A DNA stretch of 12,246 bases from a virus (taxonomy: Duplodnaviria; Heunggongvirae; Uroviricota; Caudoviricetes), in the IMG/VR virus record IMGVR_UViG_2695420793_000011; one strand, written 5' to 3'. Under the pieces are notes generated by a model. That model was not told the DNA's origin. It saw nothing but the letters and a program-made list of their open reading frames with translations, and searched no databases. Numbering within the stretch: the stretch's first letter is position 1; every line of letters starts with the position of its first letter. Positions 11,612-12,246 of the stretch are shown piece after piece. A program made the position numbers and the translations under genes.

Positions 11612-11837
11612 TTAATCGTAGCGATTTAACACGATTCGACGTTTGCTATCGCTACCTGCAACAACCACTTCTGTCGTTACACCTTTGACGGGCGAAGAAA
11701 ACAGATGACGGGTGTCAACATTATACGTTAACTGACCACAATGCTGTTGAGGTTGACCATTAACCATAGCCATACTGCATGTTGGGGGACTGATCCTGCC
11801 ATTAATCGCTAATGTGGCAGTCTCTGAAGAGAATGCG
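11612..11837 (-). pseudogene. yehE: yehE remnant, 5' end (probable signal-peptide region) removed by IS1 insertion
   Basis: Frame encodes ...AFSSETATLAINGRISPPTCSMAMVNGQPQQHCGQLTYNVDTRHLFSSPVKGVTTEVVVAGSDSKRRIVLNRYD. The first five codons of the track ORF (TTG start, MESLP) are read from IS1 terminal inverted-repeat bases, so the native N-terminus is missing. Confidence 0.55.
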
Positions 11838-12246
11838 GGTAATGACTCCAACTTACTGATAGTGTTTTATGTTCAGATAATGCCCGATGACCTTGTCATG
11901 CAGCTCCACCGATTTTGAGAACGACAGTGACTTCCGTCCCAGCCTTGCCAGATGTTGTCTCAGATTCAGGTTATGCCGCTCAATTCGCTGAGTGTAACGC
12001 TTGCTGATTACGTGCAGCTTTCCCTTCAGGCGGGATTCATACAGCGGCCAGCCATCCGTCATCCATACCACGACCTCAAAGGCCGACAGCAGGCTTAGAA
12101 GACGCTCCAGTGTGGCCAGAGTGCGTTCACCGAATACGTGCGCAACAACCGTCTTCCGGAGCCTGTCATACGCGTAAAACAGCCAGCGCTGGCGCGATTT
12201 AGCCCCGACGTATCCCCACTGTTCGTCCATTTCCGCGCAGACGATG
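11838..12246 (-). mobile_element. IS1 insertion sequence, partial (one end plus insB; remainder beyond window)
   Basis: Terminal inverted repeat GGTAATGACTCCAACTTACTGATAGTGTTTTATGTTCAGATAATGCCCGATGAC begins at 11838. The adjacent ORF is InsB. Confidence 0.9.
11853..12246 (-). CDS. insB: IS1 transposase InsB, C-terminal part (gene continues beyond window end)
   Basis: Translation ...[41 protein letters not shown]...[20 protein letters not shown] matches IS1 InsB, with a few substitutions relative to the K-12 copy as I recall it. Confidence 0.9.

Follow-up and report, generated by a model that had tools for sequence, protein, structure and literature searches.

IS1 joined to a 5'-truncated yehE upstream of an intact yehDCBA fimbrial operon in Escherichia coli DNA

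The consequence of an IS1 insertion for a neighbouring gene is known to vary with the flanking sequence. The outward-facing -35-like box of the element can make a hybrid promoter if the adjoining DNA supplies a correctly spaced -10 (PMC8764528; Prentki et al. 1986, cited in PMC9330008); depending on the -10 spacing, an IS1 upstream of a gene can raise its expression, lower it or leave it unchanged (PMC8764528). In ST131, where a co-oriented IS1 lies upstream of each of three genes, the afaA transcript was raised about 7 log2-fold through a hybrid promoter, osmB was lowered and ugd did not change (PMC8764528). Insertion sequences upstream of operons silenced by H-NS can activate them, bgl being an example (PMC9678765, PMC2646131). 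The yehDCBA chaperone-usher operon is itself cryptic in laboratory conditions, is repressed by H-NS and is induced 3.6-fold when SlyA is overproduced (PMC5797941, PMC3559732); its yehD/yehE spacer forms, in K-12, a “promoter island” to which H-NS binds (PMC3661553), and the region lies within a silenced protein-occupancy domain whose loss alone did not induce yehDCBA (bioRxiv 10.1101/2024.06.20.599902).

The present work concerns a stretch of 12,246 nucleotides (the window) in which an IS1 end is joined to yehE. The closest counterpart is the IS1 in yehE of strain HeN100 (NZ_CP044443.1), which lies in the same gene and the same orientation, 12 bp from the site in the window, and likewise splits yehE near the end of the signal peptide. 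It is nevertheless an independent event, at a different site and with a different subtype of IS1, annotated as IS1B-like and 96.7% identical to the copy in the window, and HeN100 displays both IS1 ends and both halves of yehE while the window displays one IS1 end. The event also resembles those in SCU-106, 2017-02-1CC, NDM1, R18, AMSCJX03 and 13C1065T, among other genomes, and in yehA of ST131 (PMC8764528), in which the same element family has produced pseudogenes at the same locus, but those events strike yehD or its promoter region, or delete yehD-yehA, whereas the one described here spares yehDCBA and removes only the 5' end of yehE. With the activated afa/dr (ST131) and bgl operons (PMC8764528, PMC9678765) it shares an insertion sequence upstream of, and co-oriented with, an operon repressed by H-NS; it differs from them in having no hybrid promoter and in lying 518 bp from the first fimbrial gene, past a terminator and outside the AT-rich silencer and promoter region.

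The IS1 end and the yehE remnant

The IS1 terminal repeat begins at position 11838, where the plus strand reads GGTAATGACTCC... (elsewhere written GGTAATGACTCCAACTTACTGATAG... or GGTAATGACTCCAACTTACTGATAGTG...), and the 409 nt from 11838 to 12246 are 100% identical in sequence comparison to nt 1-409 of a complete 768-bp IS1, an exact match to a known element that is too long to be due to chance. The same 409 bases recur with 100% identity in numerous E. coli IS1 copies, chromosomal as well as plasmid-borne, the variant being widespread. The position of the terminus is fixed by a complete 768-bp copy of this variant in strain M217 (locus L003, 801-1568), which is flanked by the 9-bp duplication GAAATAATG; the true end of the element is therefore GGTAATGAC, corresponding to 11838 in the window. 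The repeat, which in IS1 is about 23 bp long, reads GGTAATGACTCCAACTTACTGAT, the same as the M217 terminus, and has the start typical of the IS1 family (GGTAATGAC or GGTGATGCT). The minus-strand open reading frame 11853-12245 matches the Pfam domain DDE_Tnp_IS1 (PF03400) over positions 2-131 of 131 (E = 4e-75), so the InsAB' DDE transposase of the family is also represented; the window contains 409 of the 768 bp and ends within the element, and the insA part falls beyond it. By its terminus, its transposase domain and its exact identity to complete copies, the element is IS1. Its transposase is co-directional with yehE and yehD. Feature coordinates are collected in Table 1.

Table 1. Features of the window, with positions counted from its first nucleotide
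Feature	Position	Strand	Basis
Island: DUF4222	217-516		
Island: Icd-like	836-1039		
Island: HTH regulator	1893-2117		
Island: DUF6387	2221-3075		
Island: integrase	3072-4292	-	
yehDCBA operon	6478..11319	-	all four genes full length
yehA, intact	6478-7512	-	100% identical to Ecol_224
yehB, intact	7526-10006	-	100% identical to Ecol_224
yehC, intact	10022-10696	-	100% identical to Ecol_224
yehD, intact	10777-11319	-	100% identical to Ecol_224
yehD-yehE intergenic region, 292 bp, 24% G+C, presumed yehD promoter(s)	11320..11611		100% identical to Ecol_224
yehE intrinsic terminator, perfect hairpin then UUUUUUAUU	11541..11584	-	RNA fold
yehE 3' remnant, nt 57-282 of 282, residues P19-D93 and stop	11612..11837	-	translation; intact Ecol_224 gene
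Presumed target-site copy GAGAATGCG	11829..11837		inferred from 9-bp duplications at other IS1 copies (L003, HeN100)
IS1 terminal inverted repeat, about 23 bp, GGTAATGACTCCAACTTACTGAT	11838..11860		direct reading and L003 terminus
Partial IS1, 409/768 bp, from the IR next to the insB 3' end (IRR end)	11838..12246	-	identity to complete copies
IS1 transposase frame, C-terminal part (insB / InsAB'), ending ...HYLNIKHYQ and stop	11853..12246	-	translation and Pfam

An uninterrupted form of the locus is provided by the chromosome of E. coli Ecol_224 (NZ_CP018948.1), to which positions 1-11839 of the window are 100.0% identical; in the alignment the two sequences part exactly at the IS1 terminus, the G's at 11838-11839 belonging to the IS1 end as well as to the target. 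Ecol_224 has an intact yehE of 282 nt (93 aa), which starts MNKYWLSGIIFLAYGLAS-PAFSSE... (MNKYWLSGIIFLAYGLASPAFSSETATL...) and is followed by apbC and metG; the product of this gene matches Pfam DUF2574 (PF10836) over positions 1-93, all 93 of the domain (E = 1.6e-52). The portion retained in the window translates as ...PAFSSETATLAING...NRYD and stop in the minus-strand frame 11612-11837, and the open frame as a whole (11612-11851, minus strand) reads ...PAFSSETATLAINGRISPPTC...RRIVLNRYD and stop, in which four codons internal to IS1 lead into the last 75 residues of YehE. Absent from the window are nt 1-56 of yehE, comprising codons 1-18, with the start codon and signal-peptide residues, and two bases of codon 19. 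The lost residues 1-18 are the n- and h-regions of a typical signal peptide, and the break lies within 1-4 residues of two plausible signal-peptidase sites, GLA/S and AFS/S (cut at the slash), which were placed by eye according to the -3/-1 rule with no predictor behind them. Since only residues 19-93 are kept, short of a full-length PF10836 match, the gene is a truncated pseudogene of the YehE/DUF2574 family, a family for which a literature search found no papers.

These results agree with the original prediction, according to which the IS1 terminal repeat adjoins the yehE frame at the probable boundary between signal peptide and mature protein and leaves yehE truncated at its 5' end. The possibility that yehE natively starts at this position, which would mean that nothing had been truncated, fails, because in reference genomes the start of yehE lies 56 nt beyond the break, and this is so even in Ecol_224, which is identical to the window over the other 11.8 kb.

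Lacking the native start codon and the signal peptide, the remnant should be unable to give a functional exported protein. The sole in-frame start ahead of residue 19 is a TTG within the IS1 repeat, and no Shine-Dalgarno-like sequence was seen by eye upstream of it. It thus appears that yehE, which encodes a small exported DUF2574 protein, is inactivated, and a protein made from the remnant would have no signal peptide. A fusion of InsB to YehE is ruled out, as insB stops at its own TAA (11853-11855) and yehE lies in another frame.

An exact-product look-up found no record of 79-aa truncated versions of YehE, whether beginning with L or with M. Versions of 53 and 51 aa starting at internal ATG codons are on record, and nearly all of these are short gene calls at intact loci: public annotations of intact loci often start yehE at an internal ATG (11612-11773 or 11612-11767, minus strand) and so report a 53-aa or 51-aa protein in place of the 93-aa one. 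Exact-product look-ups of “truncated” YehE consequently return mostly intact genes; they also led to the IS3-family element of L025 and the double-IS1 inversion of L030.

A separate feature of the window is the P4-like integrase island at positions 1-4480, located 141 bp downstream of the rcnR stop codon. The island is absent from K-12-like loci, where thiM directly follows rcnR, and in Ecol_224 it goes on with a DNA primase and a fusion of a ClpP-like prohead protease to a major capsid protein, so that the Ecol_224 island resembles a capsid-forming phage satellite. There is no tRNA gene at the island boundary. The presence of a different integrase at the same place in another strain (L024) suggests that this is an integration hotspot.

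Simple insertion and IS1-mediated rearrangement

The explanation that we prefer, and regard as probable, is a transposition event in a very close relative of Ecol_224, in which an IS1 of a variant common in E. coli entered yehE at codon 19. The IS1 end is joined to nt 57 of yehE, and what remains of the gene is cut off from its promoter, start codon and residues 1-18. If the event was a simple insertion, the far end of the element would be followed by a second copy of GAGAATGCG, then by the first 56 nt of yehE and then by apbC, and the second junction is predicted to read ...GGCAGCATCACC-GAGAATGCG-GGAGAAGCC.... The end of the contig within IS1 most likely reflects the tendency of short-read assemblies to break at multicopy repeats, and because the window ends there, simple insertion, as opposed to an IS1-bounded rearrangement, is an inference.

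The behaviour of IS1 at this locus in other genomes makes rearrangement a genuine rival. A co-oriented IS1 occurs within about 1 kb of yehE in 28 complete E. coli genomes, and 15 such loci were mapped onto the Ecol_224 reference, with positions expressed as window equivalents. Four are simple insertions (HeN100 in yehE; SCU-106, 2017-02-1CC and NDM1 in or at the 5' end of yehD), 10 are IS1-bounded deletions into yehD, yehC, yehB or yehA (R18, AMSCJX03, 13C1065T, ET82, ETEC4090, 6EVA, 23CRST009, TUM9757 and JMF1 among others), and in one, Evo1, yehE is split by a double-IS1 inversion, a structure also present in L030. Deletions or inversions thus account for 11 of the 15 mapped events, and IS1 is known to make adjacent deletions and inversions (Turlan & Chandler 1995, cited in PMC9330008). 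The IS1 in the window could accordingly mark the endpoint of a deletion toward apbC, of an inversion or of a recombination between two IS1 copies, with the 5' end of yehE deleted or located elsewhere.

Several observations argue against this on the side that lies beyond the window. All 10 of the observed deletions extend into yehDCBA and none extends toward apbC or metG, whereas in the window the yehDCBA side is fully intact. Deletions toward apbC are limited by metG, an essential aminoacyl-tRNA synthetase gene at a distance of only about 1.5 kb. In two other cases IS1 breaks yehE, once by the inversion (Evo1/L030) and once by a clean insertion (HeN100): in HeN100 a complete IS1 lies between the two halves of yehE with a 9-bp duplication at window-equivalent 11818-11826, which makes simple insertion viable here also. 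On balance a rearrangement of the unseen side is rather unlikely, although it is the strongest of the alternatives.

Whichever process produced it, the junction is rare. A megablast search of 5,426 complete E. coli genomes found it in none of them, the only match being HeN100 with its different site, and exact scans of genome and metagenome contig collections gave 0 hits for the observed junction and 0 hits for the predicted second junction. Since the junction is absent from all of the collections searched, it represents a private or rare allele, and the event is an unrecorded instance of a well-known kind, an ordinary strain-specific IS1 knockout.

Expression of yehDCBA

The original prediction placed the insertion about 500 bp upstream of yehD, which is close to the measured distance of 518 bp between the IS1 end and the yehD start codon (11319), and it further proposed that the insertion could change the expression of yehDCBA. 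This second proposal found no support in the sequence. An effect on the operon could arise in two ways, through disturbance of the H-NS filament or bridge over yehE-yehD or through transcription reading out of IS1, and the co-orientation of IS1 with yehD, together with the precedents of bgl and afa, speaks for it. The same ST131 survey that supplies the afa precedent also supplies osmB and ugd, however, and the features of the locus point the other way.

With regard to read-out from IS1, the terminal repeat carries the outward-facing -35-like hexamer TTGGAG on the minus strand, but with spacers of 15-19 the potential -10 hexamers agree with TATAAT at only 2 of 6 positions, and the best combination of any kind reaches 6/12; an IS1 hybrid promoter is thereby ruled out, and a promoter scan reported no site at the junction. 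Between the yehE remnant and the upstream region of yehD there is, in addition, a strong intrinsic terminator, for which an 86-nt segment has a minimum free energy of -24.5 kcal/mol (z = -5.7, a fold that none of 200 shuffled sequences equals). It was found by folding, as a simple terminator scan missed the hairpin and reported nothing. Given this terminator, transcripts that run from IS1 across the yehE remnant are expected to end short of the upstream region of yehD. The 36-bp perfect palindrome AAAGCCGAAATCATTTATATAAATGATTTCGGCTTT that lies here (11541-11584) has A/T runs on both flanks, and for this reason it might act as a terminator in both directions.

With regard to silencing, the promoter island is unchanged, the insertion falls in DNA of 44-48% G+C at a distance of 226 bp from the AT-rich spacer, and the loss of protein occupancy by itself was insufficient for induction in the study cited above. 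As the AT-rich upstream region is untouched, the yehE terminator is in place and a hybrid promoter is lacking, yehDCBA most likely stays silent, as it does in other strains. Activation or alteration of the operon by the insertion is improbable, and an effect on yeh expression would be possible only through a change in H-NS silencing or in filament or bridge geometry, for which the sequence leaves a small chance. A stronger version, in which IS1 splits an H-NS-bound domain extending over yehE and the yehD promoter island and partly relieves silencing so that the strain expresses Yeh fimbriae, we consider slightly less probable still. If it were true, the locus would be a natural analogue of the activation of bgl by insertion sequences, the recurrent hits near yehE and yehD would reflect selection on fimbrial expression as opposed to neutral decay, and de-repressed Yeh fimbriae would offer a natural handle on when the cryptic adhesin is used.

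An assembly artefact, in which IS1 reads were wrongly joined to yehE at the end of a chimeric contig, is very improbable: the window does end within a multicopy repeat and no other sequence with the junction was found in the collections searched, but the break coincides exactly with the canonical IS1 terminus GGTAATGAC... instead of falling at random, the last 9 bp of the flank are a plausible target, and other genomes carry independent IS insertions within about 70 bp.

Repeated insertion events at the yeh locus

The probable insertion of IS1 into yehE described here appears to belong with other, recurrent hits by which insertion sequences erode the yeh locus. The mapped IS1 events (loci L004-L016 and L030) span window-equivalent positions 6597-11772, and a survey of ST131 lists IS1 in yehA (PMC8764528). 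Other families are represented as well: in GCA_977066865.1 (L025) a 1,254-bp IS3-family element with HTH_Tnp_1 and rve genes lies in yehE at window-equivalent 11771-11777, and in GCA_000168075.1 (L031) an element with a DDE_3-domain transposase (IS630-like) lies in yehB at about 9396 in window-equivalent coordinates. A crude estimate that is based on about 73,000 IS1 places in 28 Gb and ignores shared ancestry gives an expectation of about 10 co-oriented IS1 copies for a stretch of this size over the whole collection, compared to the 28 observed, and any enrichment of IS1 at yeh is therefore at most modest. DNA bound by H-NS has been described as a transposition hotspot, a property that has been demonstrated for IS5-family elements only (PMC11335895), and the occurrence of at least 15 IS1 events at yehE-yehDCBA among the mapped loci is consistent with the view that transposons are captured by DNA to which H-NS binds.

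Considered on its own, the knockout of one small gene by IS1 in a private allele matters little and would be at most a lineage marker. Taken together with the other events at the locus, it fits a process in which a “core” cryptic fimbrial operon, yeh, is being eroded by repeated IS1 events in some E. coli lineages.
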